Source: an uncultured Phascolarctobacterium sp. (GTDB lineage: Bacteria > Bacillota > Negativicutes > Acidaminococcales > Acidaminococcaceae). From it: a DNA stretch of 64,000 nt. Positions 29,752 through 38,563 of the stretch are shown piece by piece. Below the pieces are notes generated by a model. The model was not told the origin of the DNA. It searched no databases and was given only the letters and a program-made list of their open reading frames with translations. Where the stretch lies: NCBI RefSeq assembly GCF_900544795.1, contig NZ_UQWM01000001.1, one strand, 5' to 3'. Position 1 is the stretch's first letter. The number at the start of each line of letters is the position of its first letter. The translations under genes were made by a program, and so were the position numbers.

Positions 29752-32469
29752 CTACAACAGTTCGCCGTAACGTTTGATATAAAGTTTTTTCATTACCGTG
29801 GCCAAAGCCATGTAAGCCAGCGTGATAGCGGCCAACCAGCCGAAATAATCAGCAGGCAGCGATGCTAGCCCGATAGCGTGACCCGCAGCGGTAAAGGGTA
29901 TCACTGTCAGTACTGCAATGCCAATAAAGGTGAGCAGCGTGACCGGGGCCGACGCATGGCTTTGCAGGAAGGGGATCTTCGGCGTTCTGATCATATGGAT
30001 GACCAGAGTCTGCGTCCACATGGATTCTACGAACCAACCGGCCTGGAACACGGCGATATACAGCGCCTGCTGCGCCGGATCGGTCAGTTGATGGAACAAG
30101 AGTCCTCCTACAGCCGCCGGGCAAATGATGAAATACATCAGCGCGTAGGTCGCGATGTCAAAAACTGAACTGGTCGGCCCGATCCAGATCATAAAATTGC
30201 TGACGCTGGAAGCATCCCATTTTCTGGGCCGGGTCAAAAATTCCTTATCCACGTTATCCCAGGGGATCGCCGTGCAGGAAATATCATAGATCAAATTAAG
30301 CAAAATCAGATGGATGGACGCCATAGGCAAAAACGGCAGGAAGGCGCTGGCAATCAGGACCGAGAAGATATTGCCGAAGTTGGACGAAGCCGTCATCTTG
30401 ATATATTTGATCATATTGGCATAAGTTTTGCGGCCTTCGATGATGCCCTTTTCCAGCACCAGCAGGTCTTTTTCCAGCAGGATAACGTCAGCAGATTCCT
30501 TGGCGATATCGACTGCCGTATCGACAGAGATACCCACATCGGAAGCCTTCATGGCCGCCGCATCGTTGATACCGTCGCCAAGATAACCTACAGAATGGCC
30601 ATTTTCACGCAGCAACCGCACGACCCTGGCTTTTTGGGCCGGGGCTAATTTGGCAAAAACAGTGGTAGTTTCAGCCGCTGCTGCCAGTTCTTCATTGCTC
30701 ATGGCCTCCACTTCACTGCCCAGCAGCATTTTTTCTATGGACAGCCCCACATGGCGGCACACACATTTAGTGACCTTCTCGTTGTCGCCGGTCAAGATCT
30801 TCACGGCAACACCGTGCTCCTGCAGCGCTTTGATGGCTGCGGCCGTAGTTTCTTTCGGCGGGTCGAGGAAAGCCAGATAGCCTATCAGTACCATCTCGTT
30901 TTCATCGGCAACCGAAAAAGCGCCAACAGGCGACGGATTAGTTTTTTGGGCTACAGCGATGACGCGCATCCCATCCTCGTTCAACTCGTCCACCTTCTCC
31001 ATCACGATTTTTTTCATGGAAGCGGTCAGCGGCACTACTCGGCCTGCATATTCTACGAAAGCTGAAATATTGAGCATTTCTTCAACGGCACCCTTGGTTA
31101 TCATCTGGGTCTTGCCATTTTTATCTTCCACCACCACGCTCATGCGGCGGCGTTCAAAATCAAAGGGTATTTCGTCCACCTTGTTATAAAAGTTTTCCAG
31201 GTCGCCCAGCTGGTCGTGCTGCGTTTCCTGTTCCAGCTTCGTCCTGCTGATAATGGCGATATCCATCAGATTTTTCAACCCGGTCTGGTAAAAGCTGTTC
31301 AAAAAAGCGTGCCGCAAGACCCGAGGCGCTTCGTTGCCTTCGATATCCAGATGGTATTCCAGCACTACCTTGTCCTGGGTCAGCGTGCCTGTTTTATCGG
31401 TGCAGAGGATATCGATAGAGCCTAAATTTTGGATAGAATTAAGATTTTTGATGATGACTTTTTCTTTAGACATCGATACCGCGCCCTTAGCCAGGCAGGT
31501 AGTAACGATCATCGGCAGCATTTCCGGAGTCAGGCCGACGGCCACCGAAATAGCAAACAGGGCGGCGTTCATCCAGTCGCCTTTGGTAAAACCGTTGATG
31601 AACAGTACCACCGGCACCATGACCAGCATAAAGCGGATCAATACCCAGGAAACGGAATTAACGCCTTTTTCAAAGCTGGTTTTGGGTGGCTTGCCGCTCA
31701 GTGCTCTGGCCATCTCACCCAGCAGCGTATCGTTACCCGTAGCCACAACAACGCCGACGGCAGTGCCGCTGATAACATTGCTGCCCATAAAGGCCAGATT
31801 GGAATTTTCGGTAATGGCGGCAGCCACTTCTGCCTGACACAAGTATTTTTCTACCGGCTCACTTTCACCGGTTAGTGCCGACTGGCTGACAAACAGGTCT
31901 TTCGCAAAAATGATGCGGATATCAGCCGGCACCATATCGCCTGCCGATAAATGCACGATATCGCCTACCACCACTTCGTCCAGCGGTATTTCCTGCTGCC
32001 CCGTTTCCAACCGCTCTACACAGGTAGTAGTTTCGATCATCGCCGACAGCTTGGCTGCCGCGTTGCCGCTTCTGGTCTCCTGCACAAAACGCAACAGTCC
32101 CGAAATCAGTACCATCGTCGTAATGATGATCACAGTGATGGCGTCTTCCTCGCCCGGATCGGACAGATAAATATCCGTAAAGCCCGACACCACAGCCAGC
32201 ACGAATAAGATAGCCGTGAACGGATTAACAAAAGCCTTGCAGATACGGGTAAACAGCGACTCCTTCTTGCCGTGGGTCACCACATTGTCGCCATAGCGAT
32301 CACGCACGCTTTCCACCATGCCCGTAGGCAGCCCTTTGCCTGTAGTGCCCAGCTGCCGCAAAACAGTGTTTACATCATGGCCTGCGGCAAAACGCAGCCT
32401 TTCGCTGACCTGCTCACGATGCAGGATCTCCTGCGGGTTATTTTTAAAAAACAGTAATTTCTTTTTCAT
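29752..32469 (-). CDS. mgtA: Magnesium-importing P-type ATPase
   Basis: 905 aa. DKTGTLT phosphorylation motif, [14 protein letters not shown] hinge, about 10 TM helices. RBS GGAGGTAG. Confidence 0.9.
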
Positions 32470-32764: not shown

Positions 32765-32925
32765 TTCAAATCAGAACCGGCCCTGTTCAAGCTTTAACTC
32801 CACAGGGCGATGAAACTGCGTTAGATTATGCCTTGTTTTCGACATAGCCTGTTCAAACCTGCTCATGGTGTCTCCACCACTCCGCGGCAGCAGTCCGTAT
32901 CCCTATGGTAGCCTCACCTACCAGA
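32765..32925 (-). promoter_or_regulatory. M-box (ykoK-type) magnesium riboswitch in the mgtA leader
   Basis: Minus strand reads TAGGTGAGGCTACCATAGGGATACGGACTGCTGCCGCGGAG...ATGTCGAAAACAAGGCATAATCTAACGCAG..., matching the conserved M-box cores GTTAGGTGAGGCT, ATACG, CTGCTGCC and ATGTCGAAA. Confidence 0.8.
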
Positions 32926-32974
32926 ATATCCAGCTTCTATATTATACATTAAGCTATTTAAGTTTGTCAACACT

Positions 32975-33355
32975 TTATTTTCTTAAATTTTCTTCTTCAA
33001 ATTTCAAACATCTTTCTTCATAACCGTCGATCTTATTGTCAAGCCGTTCCAATACTGCCTGCATTTCAACTATTTTAAGAGCAAGCTGCTGGCGCTGTTC
33101 TACTAAAAGTTCTTTGCGGGCACCGATCGTGTCCGCTCCCTGATTGAACATGGCCACATACTCGATCAGCATTTCGACCGGTATACCAACACCACGCATA
33201 CATTTGATAAATTCGACCCAATTACAGTCGGTCTCATCGTAAGTACGGATACCGCTGCTACTGCGCTTTACCGGCGGGATCAGACCGATCCGCTCATAAT
33301 AGCGCAATGTATCTGCTGGCAAACCAAATTTTTTACTCACTTCGGCAATCGTCAT
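32975..33355 (-). CDS. adhR: MerR-family transcriptional regulator, AdhR/NmlR-like (conserved Cys, aldehyde or electrophile stress type)
   Basis: 127 aa. MTIAEVSKKFGLPADTLRYYERIGLIPPVKRSSSGIRTYDE...FIKCMRG aligns closely with B. subtilis AdhR, including the single conserved Cys. RBS GAGGAGGTG. Confidence 0.8.
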   Translation of the reverse strand: MTIAEVSKKFGLPADTLRYYERIGLIPPVKRSSSGIRTYDETDCNWVEFIKCMRGVGIPVEMLIEYVAMFNQGADTIGARKELLVEQRQQLALKIVEMQAVLERLDNKIDGYEERCLKFEEENLRK

Positions 33356-33380
33356 GGGGCAGCACCTCCTCGTTGCCTTT

Positions 33381-33411
33381 ATTCTAACACTTAGAGTTAA
33401 CTCCAAGTCAA
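33381..33411 (-). promoter_or_regulatory. MerR-type promoter-operator (TTGACT, 19-bp spacer containing a palindrome, TAGAAT) upstream of the merR gene
   Basis: Minus strand reads TTGACTTGGAGTTAACTCTAAGTGTTAGAAT; near-perfect dyad ACTTGGAGTTAACTCTAAGT. Confidence 0.75.
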
Positions 33412-33441
33412 GCAGAATTTGTCACTGCACCGCTCAACGGC

Positions 33442-34590
33442 TTATTCACCAAAAACAGCTGCTGCCTGCCGCATATTCTCGATCACCGCTACCTTAAAGG
33501 GGCAGCGCTTTTCGCAGGCACCGCAGCCTACGCACTCGCCAGCCTTATGGGCCAGTACTTTATAATGCTCCCGCACGGTCTCCGGAACGCCATTTTGCGC
33601 CCTGGTCAAATTCAAAAACTTGGTTACCGTTGCCACGTCGATGCCTTTGGGACAGGGAGCACAATGGCCGCAGTACATACAATGCCCTTCCCAGTTGATC
33701 TTAGGGAAGGAAGCAAAAGCCGCCGCGTAATCTTTTTCAGCAGCGGTCGCCGTAGTATAAGCAATGCACGCCTTCAGCTCGTCCACCGTGTGTGAACCAG
33801 CCATCACTGCCGCCACGCCCGGGCGGGTCAGCGCATAATGCAGGCACTGATTGACCGTCAACGCCTTGCCCGCCGGTGAAAGTTTCTCGCTTAAAAGGTC
33901 ACCGCCGCCAAAAGCCTTCATGACGGTGATGCCCACGCCTAAACGGCTACATGCTTCGTACAGCGCTTCTCTTTCCGGATCCATATTTGAAAGCTGCTGC
34001 TCATAGTTTTTTCCGTCCCACAGGTCATAGCAATCTTCACCGCCCGGCTGTAGGTCATAACAGGGATTAACACTGAACATCAATACGTCGATCAGACCGC
34101 TTTTGACTGCTTCCAAAGCAGCTACAGGGTTATGGCTACTCAAACCGATATGTTTGATTTTTCCCTGCACCTGCATTTCTCTGGCATACTCCATCACAGG
34201 GCCATTGGCTACTTCGTACCAATCCTCTAAGGCGTCCACATAATGGATCATCCCAATGTCGATATAATCGGTCTCCAGCCGGGCCAGCAGATCCTCGAAG
34301 CTATCACGCACTTCCTTCAGCACACGGGTTCGTTTATACTGGCCATCCTGCCAGATAGTACACAGATGGGCCTGCAAAATAAATTTGCCGCGGCGGCCTC
34401 GCAGCCATTTGCCTAAACGGCTGCGCATCTCCGGCTGCGGAGCATACAGGTCGATACAATTGATGCCTGCTTGCTCTGCCGCTAACAACAAAGGTTCCAT
34501 CAAAGCTCCTTCGCTAGCAACAAAGCCCTCACAGCCTAAAGCTATGGCGCTGACTTTCAGGTCGGTACGTCCTAATTCACGATATTCCAT
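33442..34590 (-). CDS. Aldo/keto reductase fused to a C-terminal 4Fe-4S di-cluster ferredoxin domain
   Basis: AKR fold at the N-terminus (LGRTDLKVSAIALGC). C-terminal CMYCGHCAPCP and CVGCGACEKRCP motifs. Confidence 0.8.
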   Translation of the reverse strand: MEYRELGRTDLKVSAIALGCEGFVASEGALMEPLLLAAEQAGINCIDLYAPQPEMRSRLGKWLRGRRGKFILQAHLCTIWQDGQYKRTRVLKEVRDSFEDLLARLETDYIDIGMIHYVDALEDWYEVANGPVMEYAREMQVQGKIKHIGLSSHNPVAALEAVKSGLIDVLMFSVNPCYDLQPGGEDCYDLWDGKNYEQQLSNMDPEREALYEACSRLGVGITVMKAFGGGDLLSEKLSPAGKALTVNQCLHYALTRPGVAAVMAGSHTVDELKACIAYTTATAAEKDYAAAFASFPKINWEGHCMYCGHCAPCPKGIDVATVTKFLNLTRAQNGVPETVREHYKVLAHKAGECVGCGACEKRCPFKVAVIENMRQAAAVFGE

Positions 34591-34634
34591 TCTTCTCGCT
34601 CCATTTCTTTACTAAACTCCAGCTCATCTGCTTT

Positions 34635-35384
34635 TTAGCGCAACGCCAGTGTCAACAGCAGGTACAGCAATGGCTGATGCAGCAGATAAACGGCCAGCGA
34701 ATGACGGCCACAGCGGCTCAAACAGGCGTTGCCACGGCCAAAGGCATCAGGCAACCTGCCCTGGCGCGCACTGATACGAAAAGCATAATAACCGGCCAGA
34801 TATAAAAACAGCCAGGGAAACAACGAAAAATAATCGCTGGAAGCAAAACCAGCTTCCGTAAAGCCCAGATAAGTAGTCAGTTTATTTTTATACAGCACCG
34901 CCGGTAGCCGTGCCATGTTCCATTGTTCAAAGCCTATATAGCCGTCGTTGATATTACGGGTCAGCACAAACAATGCGGCATTGGCAAAAAGTCCCCAACC
35001 AGGACGCACTTTAGCCGCCCACCCTTCAACGGCAGCCAGCAGCAGCATCGCCGAACCCAGAAAAAACAAGATCCCGAAAACAACAGCCTGCTCGGGCACA
35101 AAAACGTGCGTTATTACAGCTACCAGCACCCCGCCAGCTATGACATGCAAGCCGCGCCTTACGGGACGCCGCCCCAGTGGCCAGCAAAAACCAGAAAGAA
35201 AGATGAACAGCCAGCAAAAACTTTGCTGCCACCAATAACAGGCAGCACTTTGGAACCAGGGCAATTCTACCTGAAACAAATACACCAGATCCCAGAAAAA
35301 ATGATAAACGATCATTCCCAGCAGCAGCAACCCCCGCAGGCTGTCTAAAAAATCATACCTGGCGCCACTATTTATCCTCTCCAT
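34635..35384 (-). CDS. DUF1624 / acyltransferase-3-like integral membrane protein
   Basis: 249 aa, about 7 TM helices. N-terminal RYDFLDSLRGLLLLGMIVYHF typical of the family. Confidence 0.5.
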   Translation of the reverse strand: MERINSGARYDFLDSLRGLLLLGMIVYHFFWDLVYLFQVELPWFQSAACYWWQQSFCWLFIFLSGFCWPLGRRPVRRGLHVIAGGVLVAVITHVFVPEQAVVFGILFFLGSAMLLLAAVEGWAAKVRPGWGLFANAALFVLTRNINDGYIGFEQWNMARLPAVLYKNKLTTYLGFTEAGFASSDYFSLFPWLFLYLAGYYAFRISARQGRLPDAFGRGNACLSRCGRHSLAVYLLHQPLLYLLLTLALR

Positions 35385-35412
35385 CTAACAGCCCTTCCTT
35401 CGCGGTAAAGTT

Positions 35413-35943
35413 TCAGCGAAGCACTTTGTCCAGCCAGTTTACTATGGCAGTTTGTCCCGACGCCGCGTCAGAACCACGGACCGCCAGTCCTTCTTTTAGC
35501 TCGGCTCCCGGGCAAACCAGTGCAATATCCTTCATACTGCGCCCCAAGCCGCTGCCCTCGTGCGTGCAGAAGGGATAGATGGTTTTGTTATGGAAATCGA
35601 ATTTTTCCAAAAAGGTCAGCACCGCCATCGGCAGCGTCCCCCACCAGATGGGATAGCCTAAAAATATCCCTTCATACTCTGCCAGCGAGGGTGGATAAAC
35701 GGCCAGCCGAGGGCGGGAACCATTACGCTGTTCCTTTTGGGCAATGGCACTCATTTCCTGATAACTGTCCGGATAAGGAATGACTGTTTCCAGCTTCACC
35801 GCCTCACAGCCAGTCTGCTGCACCAGTATCTCGGTAGCCAACTGCGTATTGCCTATGGCCAGTTCGACAGTTTTACCGCCGCTGTAATTTTCTCCGGCGC
35901 GCGAAAAATAAACGATCAGATTTTTTTCTTTATTAAAACTCAT
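35413..35943 (-). CDS. Flavodoxin-family protein
   Basis: About 176 aa. NLIVYFSRAGENYSGG FMN-binding start and PIWWGTLP motif. Start at MSFNK with RBS AAGGAG. Confidence 0.75.
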   Translation of the reverse strand: MSFNKEKNLIVYFSRAGENYSGGKTVELAIGNTQLATEILVQQTGCEAVKLETVIPYPDSYQEMSAIAQKEQRNGSRPRLAVYPPSLAEYEGIFLGYPIWWGTLPMAVLTFLEKFDFHNKTIYPFCTHEGSGLGRSMKDIALVCPGAELKEGLAVRGSDAASGQTAIVNWLDKVLR

Positions 35944-35960
35944 TTTCCTGCTCCTTTTAC

Positions 35961-35991
35961 AGCATAACACTTAAAGTTAACTCCAAGTCAA
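35961..35991 (-). promoter_or_regulatory. Second copy of the MerR-type promoter-operator, upstream of the flavodoxin gene
   Basis: Minus strand reads TTGACTTGGAGTTAACTTTAAGTGTTATGCT; 27 of 29 identical to the site at 33381..33411, same 19-bp spacing. Confidence 0.7.
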
Positions 35992-36063
35992 GAGTTCACT
36001 TGTTTTTTGTTTGTTCTCTCTATATTATATAACACTCGGAAACAGATATTTCTTAACTGCAAT

Positions 36064-36100
36064 AAAAAAAGCTTTCGAGTATACTCTCGAAAGCTTTAAC
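36064..36100 (-). terminator. Terminator after the tRNA cluster
   Basis: agctttcgag-tatact-ctcgaaagct hairpin with T7 on minus. Confidence 0.75.
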
Positions 36101-36107
36101 TGTTGAT

Positions 36108-36193
36108 TGGTGCGAGTGACAGGAATCGAACCTGCACGTCGTAAGACGCTAGATCCTAAGTCTAGTGCGTCTGCCAGTTCCGCCACACTCGCA
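36108..36193 (-). tRNA. tRNA-Leu (anticodon UAG), CCA encoded
   Basis: Long variable arm. Anticodon loop CTTAGGA. GTTCGATTC T-arm. Confidence 0.85.
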
Positions 36194-36207
36194 AACAGAC
36201 AAAAAAA

Positions 36208-36283
36208 TGGTGATCCACCCGCGACTCGAACGCGGGACACCCTGATTAAAAGTCAGGTGCTCTACCGACTGAGCTAGTGGATC
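36208..36283 (-). tRNA. tRNA-Lys (anticodon UUU), CCA encoded
   Basis: GATCCACTAGCTCAGTCGGTAGAGC...CTTTTAA anticodon loop...GTTCGAGTC. Confidence 0.85.
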
Positions 36284-36287
36284 ACAT

Positions 36288-36363
36288 TGGCTGGGGCGGC
36301 TGGACTCGAACCAACGCATGCGGGAGTCAAAGTCCCGTGCCTTACCGACTTGGCTACGCCCCA
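36288..36363 (-). tRNA. tRNA-Gln (anticodon UUG), CCA encoded
   Basis: TGGGGCGTAGCCAAGTCGGTAAGGC...CTTTGAC anticodon loop...GGTTCGAGTCC. Confidence 0.85.
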
Positions 36364-36388
36364 AGATTTGGAAATATTGGATAAATTG

Positions 36389-36466
36389 TGGGGTGACTGG
36401 AGGGGATCGAACCCTCGAAATAACGGAGCCACAATCCGCCGTGTTAACCGCTTCACCACAGCCACC
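36389..36466 (-). tRNA. tRNA-His (anticodon GUG) with encoded G-1, CCA encoded
   Basis: Extra 5' G pairing with discriminator C. Anticodon loop TTGTGGC. GGTTCGATCC T-arm. Confidence 0.85.
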
Positions 36467-36571
36467 AAATTGGCCAAACTTTATAGCTTGGCGACGAATG
36501 TTATTCTACCATAGCCACTAATCTATGTCAATCTTTTTTATAAATTTTTTTACATTTTTTTGCAGTTTTTC

Positions 36572-36952
36572 TTACTTGCAAACAGCTATAGCTTCGATTT
36601 CTACTTTTACACCTTTAGGCAGCCCGGCAACCTGCACGCAGGACCGCGCCGGCGGATTAATGGGGAACTTTTCACCGTAAATACTGTTAACCGCGCTGAA
36701 GTCTTCTAAATCGGTCAGGAATACCGTAGTTTTAACTATATCGGCAAAGGTCAGGCCCGCTTCAGTCAAAACGCCTTCCATATTCTGCAGCACTCTGATG
36801 GTCTGTGCTTCAACACCTTCGTCTACAACTTCGCCGGTTTCGGGGATCAGCGCGATCTGCCCCGACATATAGAGCATGCCGCCCACCTTGATAGCTTGAG
36901 AATAAGGGCCGATAGCGGCCGGTGCATTTTTAGTACTGATAACTTCTTTCAT
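36572..36952 (-). CDS. ridA: RidA-family reactive-intermediate (enamine/imine) deaminase
   Basis: About 126 aa, YjgF/L-PSP fold (GPYSQAIKVGGMLYMSGQIAL...). RBS GGAGG. Confidence 0.85.
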   Translation of the reverse strand: MKEVISTKNAPAAIGPYSQAIKVGGMLYMSGQIALIPETGEVVDEGVEAQTIRVLQNMEGVLTEAGLTFADIVKTTVFLTDLEDFSAVNSIYGEKFPINPPARSCVQVAGLPKGVKVEIEAIAVCK

Positions 36953-36992
36953 TTTAAAGCCTCCATTCAATGATCTTATTTAAGTTTTGCGT

Positions 36993-37901
36993 TTATTTTT
37001 TGCTGTCTGCGTCAAAATAGGCCTTCGCCCAGGCCAAAGCCGTTGGGGTCTGGGCCAGCCCGCCTTCAGCCGTTTCTTTCAGTGTACAGGGCAGACGGTC
37101 ACCGACCGCTTTCATGGCGTCGATAGCTTCGTCAGCCGGGATAAAGCTGGTGATGCCGGCCAGAGCCAGTTCAGCCGCCAGCAAAGCCTGTGCCGCCGCA
37201 CCGCCGTTACGCTTGATGCAGGGCACTTCTACCAATCCGGCAACAGGGTCGCAGACCAGGCCCAACATATTTTTAAAAACCATAGCCACTGCGTGCCCGA
37301 CCTGCTCGGGCGTACCACCCAGCACGTCTACAGCCGCACCAGCAGCCATAGCGGCGCCGCTGCCACATTCGGCCTGACAGCCACCCATAGCCCCTGACAA
37401 AGAGGCACGGTTAGCAATGACCAAGCCGATGTTACCTGCCACCACCAATGCCTCCGTCATCTGCTGAGGTTCAAGTGCATAATGTTTTTTTAAAGCCAGC
37501 AATACGCCCGGCAGTACGCCGCTGGCGCCTGCCGTTGGAGCCGCCACGATGCGGCCCATGGCTGCGTTGCACTCGCCCACTGCCATAGCGTAAGCAACGG
37601 CGTCATTGACCACGCCGCCCAGAATGTTTTTATAACCGGCTTCCTGCGGCGCTGCCTGCAATTTTTTAGCAGCGCCGCCGGTCAGACCGCTGTGCGAAGG
37701 CACGCCGGTCAAACCAAAGGCCACCGATTCTTCCATAACCTGCAGCATCGCCGCCATCTGTTCCAAAACAGCGTCTGCCGAAAGCTCCAGTTCTTCACTG
37801 CTGCGCTCCAGCAGATAGGTATGTAAAGGCACCTGCCGTACAGTAGCTTCGTCGATCCATGTTTTTAAAGAAATTTTTTCGTTGATCACGGCACACCTCA
37901 C
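36993..37901 (-). CDS. sdaAA: L-serine dehydratase (4Fe-4S dependent) alpha subunit
   Basis: 302 aa, collinear with SdaAA (catalytic subunit with Cys ligands CxxxxC...). Confidence 0.85.
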   Translation of the reverse strand: MRCAVINEKISLKTWIDEATVRQVPLHTYLLERSSEELELSADAVLEQMAAMLQVMEESVAFGLTGVPSHSGLTGGAAKKLQAAPQEAGYKNILGGVVNDAVAYAMAVGECNAAMGRIVAAPTAGASGVLPGVLLALKKHYALEPQQMTEALVVAGNIGLVIANRASLSGAMGGCQAECGSGAAMAAGAAVDVLGGTPEQVGHAVAMVFKNMLGLVCDPVAGLVEVPCIKRNGGAAAQALLAAELALAGITSFIPADEAIDAMKAVGDRLPCTLKETAEGGLAQTPTALAWAKAYFDADSKK

Positions 37902-38563
37902 AAAACATTGCGGATAAACCGCACCGACTGCATCGGTTCTAAAGCTGCAACTAAATTGACGATCGGTTCCGGCACGACCTGGTCACACTCGATGACCATG
38001 GTAGCCATTCCACCCTTATTGGCGCGGAAAACACGCATACCGGCAATGTTGATACCCGCACTGGCCAGCGCGCTGCTGACCAGCGAGATCACGCCCGGCT
38101 TGTCTTTGTGCAGGGTCAGGATCGCCGGGAAACGGCCGCTTAATTCCACAGCAGCGCCGTCGATGGAGGTAACCAGTACCTGCCCACCGCCGATAGAGGA
38201 ACCGATAACTTCGCACTGCCTGCCATCGGCCGCCGTCAATTTAAAATACACCGTATTGGGATGGGTAAGGTCGCCTAAATTGATAGTCGAAAATTCGTAT
38301 TCCAGCCCTTGCTCGGCAGCAAACTCTTTGGCCTGTGGGATGCGCGCGTCATCTGGCAACCAACCCATCAGCCCTGCCAAAAGCGCCATATCCGTACCAT
38401 GGCCGCGATAAGTCTGGGCAAAGCTGCCATGCAAAGCGATCTGCGCTTTGACAGGCCAGGCACCCAAAATGCTAATCGCCAGCAGCGATAAGCGCACAGC
38501 ACCCGCCGTATGTGAACTGGATGGCCCGATCATCACCGGGCCGATAACGTCAAATATATTCAT
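37898..38563 (-). CDS. sdaAB: L-serine dehydratase beta subunit with ACT-like domain
   Basis: 221 aa. SdaAB-type N-terminus (PSSSHTAG) and C-terminal ACT-like regulatory domain. Overlaps the sdaAA start. Confidence 0.85.
   Translation of the reverse strand: MNIFDVIGPVMIGPSSSHTAGAVRLSLLAISILGAWPVKAQIALHGSFAQTYRGHGTDMALLAGLMGWLPDDARIPQAKEFAAEQGLEYEFSTINLGDLTHPNTVYFKLTAADGRQCEVIGSSIGGGQVLVTSIDGAAVELSGRFPAILTLHKDKPGVISLVSSALASAGINIAGMRVFRANKGGMATMVIECDQVVPEPIVNLVAALEPMQSVRFIRNVL

Follow-up and report, generated by a model that had tools for sequence, protein, structure and literature searches.

The locus examined here lies on contig NZ_UQWM01000001.1 of an uncultured Phascolarctobacterium sp. 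and raises the question of what controls a minus-strand gene cluster in which the same promoter-like element appears twice, i.e., once in front of a flavodoxin gene and once in front of a gene for a MerR-family regulator (merR). Throughout, the window refers to the whole stretch of 64,000 nucleotides (64 kb) that was analysed. Our comparisons indicate that this cluster probably constitutes an AdhR/NmlR-type MerR activator regulon, in which the regulator would control both its own gene and a cargo operon in response to a reactive electrophile. The unit runs in the order P1, flavodoxin, HGSNAT-like membrane protein, aldo/keto reductase (AKR) with an iron–sulfur (Fe-S) ferredoxin domain (AKR-Fe-S), P2 and merR, where P1 and P2 are the two operator-promoters. 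An earlier note on this DNA, made from the letters alone, had named these genes as encoding a MerR regulator, a flavodoxin, a DUF1624 membrane protein and an AKR with a ferredoxin domain, and Pfam confirmed all four identities.

Two copies of one operator-promoter

The earlier note had reported an element of about 30 bp at 33381..33411 and 35961..35991, and this element was recovered by pattern, repeat and palindrome searches. The repeat search returned a 28-nt direct repeat (33385–33412 and 35965–35992) of which 27 of the 28 positions were identical (96%), with an internal palindrome in each copy. Moreover, the pattern TTGACTTGGAGTTAACTYTAAGTGTTA had exact matches in the window solely at 33385–33411 and 35965–35991, both on the minus strand. 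By chance none would be expected, and 100 shuffles yielded no match even when up to 3 mismatches were allowed. A third operator copy was not found in the window, either with this pattern or with the looser palindrome CTTNRAGTTAACTYNAAG (at most 2 mismatches).

In both copies (Table 1), a spacer of exactly 19 bp separates the –35 hexamer TTGACT from the –10 hexamer (i.e., TATGCT in P1 and TAGAAT in P2), and a TGT directly 5′ of the –10 hexamer provides the extended –10 (TGn) form. A 20-bp imperfect dyad occupies positions 4–23 of the 31-mer, with its centre (GTT/AAC) 13.5 nt from the start of the –35, and overlaps the final 3 nt of the –35. Each copy thus bears a palindrome between –35 and –10 with the 19-bp spacing that had been proposed, and both have the over-long spacer with a dyad operator by which MerR-family promoters are recognised. 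The proposed position of each copy just upstream of a start codon was likewise correct. The –10 of P1 is followed after 17 nt by the flavodoxin ATG (35943), with the Shine-Dalgarno sequence AAGGAG. P2 begins 30 nt after the AKR stop codon, and 25 nt separate its –10 from the merR ATG (33355), with the Shine-Dalgarno sequence GAGGAGGTG. Given this position between the AKR stop and the merR start, P2 was taken to be the autoregulated promoter of the regulator.

The regulator is closest to AdhR and NmlR

The merR product was assigned to the MerR family by three Pfam domains that all scored above their cut-offs (PF13411, 66.5 bits; PF00376, 59.7 bits; PF09278, 27.9 bits). It consists of a winged helix-turn-helix and a coiled coil, aligned end to end with MerR-family structures in a PDB search, and ends at residue 126, shortly past the coiled coil, without a C-terminal effector, sensor or metal-binding region. 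The best NCBIfam model was NmlR (NF041849) at 138.4 bits, followed by CueR at 65.5 bits. Compared with the Bacillus subtilis AdhR sequence, which had been confirmed by exact look-up beforehand, the regulator was 57% identical over 113 residues, and the close similarity to AdhR that had been claimed earlier is therefore well founded. Its Cys52 aligned with Cys52 of AdhR and, in the PDB alignment, with Cys54 of Haemophilus influenzae NmlR (HiNmlR), so that the conserved cysteine of helix α3 that characterises the AdhR/NmlR subfamily is present. AdhR Cys52 and HiNmlR Cys54 are needed for activation, and this residue is described as absolutely conserved in the subfamily (PMC5001606, PMC4776306).

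The regulator could also be a metal sensor of the CueR, ZntR or MerR type heading a metal-stress operon, since it gave weak profile matches to CueR, ZntR, MerR and CadR as well as matches to CueR structures, and the geometry of its promoters is, as is well established, also that of CueR-type promoters. Nevertheless, it scored far below the cut-offs of the CueR, ZntR, MerR, CadR and SoxR models (e.g., 65.5 vs. 147 bits for CueR), it stops at residue 126 without a metal-binding loop and with a lone C-terminal cysteine (Cys116) that is not conserved, and no metal-handling cargo was operator-linked among 160 related loci, all of which makes a metal sensor very improbable. A reading as part of a defence system was rejected, PADLOC having returned only a match of the regulator to ‘mad1’ at the level of the helix-turn-helix.

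The AdhR/NmlR-like regulator contains three cysteines, i.e., Cys44, Cys52 and Cys116. Among 67 regulators of related loci, Cys52 was kept in 64 and Cys44 likewise in 64, while Cys116 was variable; Cys44 was also present in all 13 sequences of alignment A1. Position 44 is Ile in AdhR and Leu in HiNmlR. The single redox-active Cys of the earlier note was therefore correct as to the sensing residue, Cys52, but not as to its being the only one, with three cysteines present and Cys44 conserved in the clade. Conservation of the sensing Cys among relatives, on which the proposal had been staked beforehand, was found in these 64 of 67 regulators.

The operator corresponds to the AdhR box of Bacillus subtilis

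For comparison, the three AdhR-controlled promoters were read directly from the B. subtilis adhR locus (L082). These are PadhR (TTGACT-TAAAGTTAACTTTAAGTGT-TACCTT; TTGACTTAAAGTTAACTTTAAGTGTTA), PyraC (TTGCCT-TAAAGCACACTTTAAACTC-TATACT) and PadhA (TTGCCT-TAAAGCAGACTTTAAGGTT-TATCGT), all with 19-bp spacers and the dyad CTTAAAG-N4-CTTTAAG. The dyads of the window and of B. subtilis share the form CTTRRAG-N4-CTYYAAG, and the AdhR-box sequence reads CTTGGAGTTAACTYTAAG in the window, CTTAAAGTTAACTTTAAG in PadhR and CTTAAAGCAxACTTTAA in PyraC and PadhA. Because the dyad and the 19-bp spacers are the same, and because B. subtilis PadhR and P1 of the window differ at only 2 of 27 positions, the window element was identified as an AdhR box.

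The AdhR (YraB) regulon of B. subtilis, comprising adhA-yraA, yraC and adhR, resembles the window in having a regulator without an effector domain and an operator directly 5′ of the regulator gene. Its cargo, however, consists of the Zn-dependent alcohol dehydrogenase AdhA, the DJ-1/PfpI protein YraA and YraC, compared with the Flavodoxin_4, HGSNAT-like and non-canonical AKR-Fe-S proteins of the window, and adhR is divergent from yraC, whereas merR of the window is co-directional with and downstream of its cargo. The two systems differ further in Cys44, which is conserved in the clade of the window regulator but not in B. subtilis AdhR.

NmlR of H. influenzae, Neisseria and Streptococcus pneumoniae likewise lacks a sensor region and has the conserved Cys (HiNmlR Cys54, equivalent to Cys52), and activation by DNA distortion was proposed for it (PMC5001606). 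The match of the window regulator to HiNmlR (E = 1.5e-14) was nevertheless weaker than that to AdhR, and the DNA-contacting Tyr17 of HiNmlR is Asp15 in the window regulator. Moreover, the HiNmlR dyad encloses the –35 elements of a pair of promoters that diverge and overlap (PMC5001606), whereas the dyad of the window lies inside the spacer, and NmlR cargo consists of adhC and estD, whereas the window operon is without an AdhA/AdhC-type dehydrogenase. The closest solved structure is that of an uncharacterised MerR-family protein of Listeria monocytogenes, LMOf2365_2715 (3GP4; E = 6.9e-33 over residues 2–122). By its regulator, Cys, operator and promoter design, the window system falls in the AdhR/NmlR subfamily and, as judged from these alignments, is predicted to work like B. 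subtilis AdhR.

The operator is conserved in loci selected by their regulator

A genome scan with the regulator alignment yielded 80 loci with regulators 57–72% identical, from Clostridia, Negativicutes, Spirochaetes, Elusimicrobia, Dehalococcoidales, Paenibacillus, Enterococcus and others. Operators were scored over 19 informative positions of the 31-bp promoter, in oriented fashion and with a fixed 19-bp-spacer template, requiring at least 16 matches. This revealed 92 operator-promoters, with few exceptions on the regulator strand and distributed over 72 of the 80 loci, against 0–1 in shuffled loci. All 92 sites fit the fixed 19-bp-spacer template by which they were found, and the dyad extended to positions that had not entered the score, with GG at 81% and 91% in one half and CA at 76% and 98% in the opposite one. 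An alignment of the region upstream of merR (A5), covering the window, three Phascolarctobacterium relatives, Sphaerochaeta and B. subtilis, was conserved solely in the –35, the dyad, the –10 and the ribosome-binding site.

Regarding architecture, the operator preceded a cargo operon ending in merR in 32 loci and lay immediately 5′ of merR in 30, while both operators were present, as in the window, in three (Sphaerochaeta L004, Christensenella L007 and Syntrophomonas L008). Close Phascolarctobacterium relatives, which were retrieved separately, keep both promoters, and in L083–L087 and L089–L108 the P1 site is placed as in the window with respect to the first cargo gene. Presence of the operator in relatives had been fixed beforehand as the observation on which the proposed regulon should stand or fall, and it was found both in the 72 loci and, in two copies, in the close relatives.

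The same data bear on whether the two elements might merely be duplicated strong promoters, or the remnant of a duplication, that involve no regulator and lie near merR by coincidence. Each copy does combine a perfect –35 (TTGACT) with a reasonable extended –10, and neither was reported by a simple scan for promoters with 16–18-bp spacers. A 19-bp spacer is, however, suboptimal for sigma-70-type promoters, and across phyla the dyad is kept, including a symmetric compensatory change (see below), while the flanks are not. Since site and regulator moreover co-occur in 72 of 80 loci and the sites match the AdhR-controlled promoters of B. subtilis, we regard such a regulator-independent duplication as even more improbable than a metal sensor, and the two elements are read as operators of the AdhR-like regulator.

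Two of the related loci deserve separate mention. In the uncultured Sphaerochaeta locus L004 (992–4420), a canonical AKR-Fe-S, a Flavodoxin_4 protein (47% identity), a window-type AKR-Fe-S (74%) and merR (69%) occur together with the same two operator-promoters, and this spirochaete module, nearly the same as that of the window, suggests that the unit as a whole was passed horizontally between phyla. In Clostridium polyendosporum (L059; 70–11338), seven AdhR-type operator-promoters were found within 12 kb, preceding FMN reductase-like, MATE, AKR-Fe-S, AKR and Flavodoxin_4 genes and two merR paralogues, which looks like a local expansion of the regulon.

Cargo genes are linked to the operator

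Within the operator-driven clusters of the 80 genome loci, the most frequent cargo was an AKR, mostly with an Fe-S domain (32 loci), followed by FMN reductase-like flavoproteins (18), Flavodoxin_4 (12), cupins (7) and Fe-dependent alcohol dehydrogenases (6). Further cargo included DUF362, DUF4405 and carboxymuconolactone decarboxylase-family proteins and MATE exporters. Together, this cargo fits an electrophile or redox detoxification theme. YraC, which stands under an AdhR box in B. subtilis, was described as a gamma-carboxymuconolactone decarboxylase (PMC4776306), and the carboxymuconolactone decarboxylase-family cargo may thus parallel YraC, which itself is without a recorded Pfam match.

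In the close relatives, the core of the module is AKR-Fe-S plus merR. One lineage (L084) has flavodoxin, AKR and merR, while the P. faecium-type lineage (matched by its AKR; L085) has the HGSNAT-like gene, AKR and merR. Nearly all matches in a second protein search were P. faecium variants at 82% identity, which brought no further diversity. A metagenomic lineage (L090; AKR 83% identical) carries the same four genes as the window. None of the operons in the 80 genome loci contained the HGSNAT-like gene, which was present in L085–L088 and L089–L108 and counts as an accessory limited to Phascolarctobacterium-type loci. In the P. faecium-type lineage, P1 is kept but the flavodoxin gene is a decayed 5′ stump (L085 3816–3985, with equivalents in L086 and L091 to L108) that has lost its start codon and suffered internal deletions and is followed directly by the HGSNAT-like gene, showing the flavodoxin to be dispensable for the module. 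The flavodoxin and membrane genes are therefore variable accessories, and AKR-Fe-S is the core cargo.

As an independent test, 80 metagenome loci (L089–L168) were chosen by the window-type AKR-Fe-S protein alone (63–99% identity). Of the 70 operator matches obtained there, comprising 33 distinct sequences, 69 were on the AKR strand, against 1–2 matches in shuffles. Where at least 1.5 kb of upstream sequence was available, the operator was found upstream on the AKR strand in 40 of 55 loci, whereas merR followed the AKR immediately in only 23 of the 67 loci that extended far enough downstream. This difference indicates that the AKR-Fe-S subfamily is tied to the operator itself and not merely to a neighbouring regulator gene. 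One metagenome operator variant (TTGACTTGTAGTTTACTACAGG) carried matched changes in its two half-sites (TTGTAGT...ACTACAG), a symmetric compensatory change of the kind expected for a site that is read by a homodimer.

Both the cysteines and this cargo raise the possibility that the same MerR hardware serves another signal, with the two-Cys clade sensing oxidants, disulfide stress, quinones or oxygen and controlling a redox/quinone detoxification set. This would account for the near-invariance of Cys44 in the clade as opposed to the Ile of AdhR and the Leu of HiNmlR, and the relatives' cargo indeed consists mainly of flavoproteins and Fe-S proteins (FMN_red, Flavodoxin_4, AKR-Fe-S, DUF362) and not of thiol-dependent formaldehyde dehydrogenases. 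However, Cys52 follows Cys44 at a distance of eight residues, and both lie in the part of the protein equivalent to helix α3 of HiNmlR (PMC5001606), so that an intramolecular disulfide is disfavoured unless the helix unfolds locally. Moreover, Cys52 by itself suffices in AdhR, and the AKR and Fe-dependent alcohol dehydrogenase cargo suits carbonyl reduction. On balance, we consider oxidant or quinone sensing to be somewhat unlikely.

The AKR-Fe-S enzyme departs from canonical AKRs

The AKR domain of the core cargo protein was recognised at 62.3 bits (PF00248; cut-off 24), and AKR structures were its best PDB matches (1YNP, E = 1.7e-12). Its C-terminal part matched the ferredoxin domains Fer4_8 (27.4 vs. 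27 bits) and Fer4_17 (26.5 vs. 22.2 bits) above their cut-offs and is a predicted two-[4Fe-4S] ferredoxin domain with two four-Cys motifs that each end in Cys-Pro, i.e., C304-X2-C-X2-C-X2-C313-P (residues 304, 307, 310 and 313) and C353-X2-C-X2-C-X3-C363-P (residues 353, 356, 359 and 363). All eight motif cysteines are invariant in the subfamily alignment A2, whose members are 47–82% identical to one another, as are Cys77 (near His75), Cys214 and Cys249 in the barrel. The latter three may be structural, catalytic or ligands of an additional cluster.

The window subfamily shares its barrel and two-cluster ferredoxin architecture with the canonical AKR + 4Fe-4S group (‘predicted aldo/keto reductase-like oxidoreductase’), which is also frequent operator cargo in relatives (cluster C1, in 32 loci), but is only 20–25% identical to canonical AKR-Fe-S proteins under the same operator. 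Where the canonical group retains D-T-A-x-x-Y and T-K, IDLY...LQAHLC is found in the window subfamily, whose first Cys motif reads CX2CX2CX2CP compared with the canonical CX2CX2CX3CP. The AKR catalytic tetrad Asp-Tyr-Lys-His is incomplete: Asp47 and His116 are kept, but an invariant His75 takes the Lys position throughout the subfamily. In the column of the canonical Tyr, the subfamily varies between Q, H, D, N and E; a Tyr is present at Asp+2, its alignment being ambiguous between the PDB and MAFFT alignments. In addition, a Ser fills the column in which the canonical AKR-Fe-S paralogues have a Gln, taken here from general knowledge of AKRs to be the nicotinamide-binding one. As read from the alignment, the His-for-Lys and Ser-for-Gln replacements are compatible with a mechanism that does not use NAD(P)H and in which electrons would enter via the Fe-S domain. 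The AlphaFold2 model of AKR-Fe-S was poor (mean predicted local distance difference test score (pLDDT) of 64, and below 50 for the Fe-S domain; 7 sequences of at least 82–84% identity), and no active-site geometry was drawn from it.

A bolder proposition would be that the two-Cys (Cys44 and Cys52) AdhR-like regulators of anaerobes form a functionally distinct sensor class, and that their signature cargo, the His-for-Lys AKR-Fe-S, is a reductase of carbonyls, quinones or other electrophiles driven by ferredoxin or flavodoxin, with their low-potential electrons, instead of NAD(P)H. We put this forward as a doubtful idea. If it were true, it would point to an anaerobe-specific detoxification chemistry without a characterised member.

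Proposed mechanism

The anatomy of the locus, the family relationships, the conserved Cys and an operator that is both conserved and linked to regulator and cargo were all observed here. On this basis, we propose that a dimer of the regulator most likely occupies the 20-bp dyad within the 19-bp spacer of P1 and P2 both at rest and when activated. At rest, the over-long spacer would put the –35 and –10 hexamers out of phase, such that the promoters would be weak or repressed. A reactive electrophile (an aldehyde, e.g., formaldehyde or methylglyoxal, or another thiol-reactive compound) would then, by analogy with AdhR and NmlR, modify Cys52, and the modified dimer would under-twist and kink the operator, allowing RNA polymerase to form an open complex and P1 and P2 to fire. 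P1 would yield the transcript for flavodoxin, HGSNAT-like protein and AKR-Fe-S, while P2 would provide positive autoregulation of merR. AKR-Fe-S would be the core output, presumably acting as a reductase of the offending carbonyl or electrophile, to which ferredoxin or flavodoxin may supply electrons; the flavodoxin of the operon is a plausible low-potential electron partner. We infer binding, activation by distortion, the inducer and the chemistry of the enzyme from analogy with the characterised systems, the inducer being the least certain step.

Several observations weigh against this AdhR/NmlR-type electrophile regulon. The regulator reaches only 138.4 bits with the NmlR model, which has an equivalog cut-off of 175 bits. 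Because Cys44, kept in nearly the whole clade, is missing from AdhR and NmlR, the signal that is sensed may differ. In 3GP4, Leu and Gln take the place of Cys44 and Cys52, and this closest structural relative can therefore not use the same thiol switch. The hallmark cargo, a class III Zn-dependent alcohol dehydrogenase, is missing as well, Pfam having detected no Zn-dependent alcohol dehydrogenase among the operator-linked genes of the window. The 17-nt leader of P1 is very short. Finally, the sole hairpin reported by the terminator scan between the AKR gene and merR is weak and falls within the final part of the AKR coding sequence. With nothing more convincing as a terminator ahead of merR, transcription from P1 probably extends into the regulator gene.

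Relation to earlier work

We thus see in the AdhR-type switch a known device, while the two-Cys clade and the non-canonical AKR-Fe-S cargo are variant-like. Our literature search found no description of a module of MerR, AKR and flavodoxin in Clostridia or Phascolarctobacterium, a targeted search for AKR + 4Fe-4S proteins found nothing relevant, and RegPrecise-related papers mentioned NmlR for Lactobacillales only. We know of no characterised member of the AKR + 4Fe-4S or Flavodoxin_4 families, both of which are large, although the Flavodoxin_4 literature was not searched by itself.

A switch that was characterised experimentally in Bacillus and in respiratory pathogens is now extended to a common genus of human gut anaerobes, with an operator that is retained at almost every base in Bacillus, Negativicutes, Clostridia, Spirochaetes and Elusimicrobia. 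The resulting position-specific motif can be used to predict an electrophile-stress regulon in many uncultured gut species, and the AKR + 4Fe-4S and Flavodoxin_4 families gain a physiological context, probably that of stress induction. The regulon itself will hardly surprise a specialist, but its operator model can aid annotation, and the AKR-Fe-S enzyme is a reasonable target for function discovery. Should this enzyme prove to be driven by flavodoxin or ferredoxin, it would represent a novel type of detoxifying reductase, which is the sole aspect that goes beyond the routine.

Gene order and boundaries of the unit

All genes of the unit are on the minus strand (Table 1).

Table 1. Features of the regulon and its surroundings, with positions in the window.
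Feature	Position	Strand	Description
P1 operator-promoter	35991..35961	minus	TTGACT - TGGAGTTAACTTTAAGTGT - TATGCT; dyad ACTTGGAGTT/AACTTTAAGT in spacer; extended –10 TGT-TATGCT
Flavodoxin_4 gene	35943..35413	minus	176 aa, without signal peptide; first operon gene; PF12682, 79.9 bits (cut-off 24)
HGSNAT_cat (formerly DUF1624) gene	35384..34635	minus	249 aa, polytopic membrane protein; second gene, 28 nt after flavodoxin stop
AKR-Fe-S gene	34590..33442	minus	382 aa; 44 nt after HGSNAT-like gene; Aldo_ket_red + 4Fe-4S dicluster
P2 operator-promoter	33411..33381	minus	TTGACT - TGGAGTTAACTCTAAGTGT - TAGAAT; dyad ACTTGGAGTT/AACTCTAAGT in spacer; TGT-TAGAAT
merR	33355..32975	minus	126 aa; MerR_1/MerR/MerR-DNA-bind Pfam domains
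Intrinsic terminator of tRNA cluster	36097..36068	minus	12-bp stem, then T-run (terminator scan)
tRNA cluster	36465..36108	minus	tRNA His-Gln-Lys-Leu
Promoter of tRNA cluster	36531..36503		near-consensus
RidA-family gene and L-serine dehydratase alpha and beta subunit genes	36572–38563	minus	before tRNA cluster
Promoter after merR	32970..32941	minus	perfect TTGACA-18-TATAAT
M-box (Mg2+) riboswitch	32932..32775	minus	RF00380, 93.7 bits
mgtA	32469..29752		P-type ATPase

For the flavodoxin, NCBIfam flavodoxin models matched below their cut-offs, and 3KLB, 4J8P and 4ICI were found as PDB relatives. A longer reading of 185 aa from a GTG start at 35970 was rejected because this start lies inside the operator, whereas the ATG has a Shine-Dalgarno sequence. 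The HGSNAT-like protein matched PF07786 at 137.2 bits (cut-off 22), covering profile positions 1–222 of 222.

Directly upstream of P1, the tRNA cluster and its intrinsic terminator were found. This strong terminator shields P1 against transcription from further upstream and delimits the unit on its 5′ side. The tRNA cluster has a promoter of its own on the minus strand, and the upstream synteny of tRNA cluster, RidA-family gene and L-serine dehydratase genes is common to the Phascolarctobacterium relatives L083–L085.

At the other end, the perfect promoter that starts five bases after the merR stop sets the downstream boundary and is followed by the M-box riboswitch and mgtA. Since no terminator lies between merR and the mgtA leader, merR transcripts may enter the riboswitch. 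In the close Phascolarctobacterium relatives L083–L086, merR and M-box/mgtA are separated by the gene of a hybrid sensor kinase (about 930 aa, with SBP_bac_3, HisKA, HATPase_c and receiver domains; e.g., L085 6566–9361). The window lacks this kinase, and merR lies right next to the mgtA promoter there.

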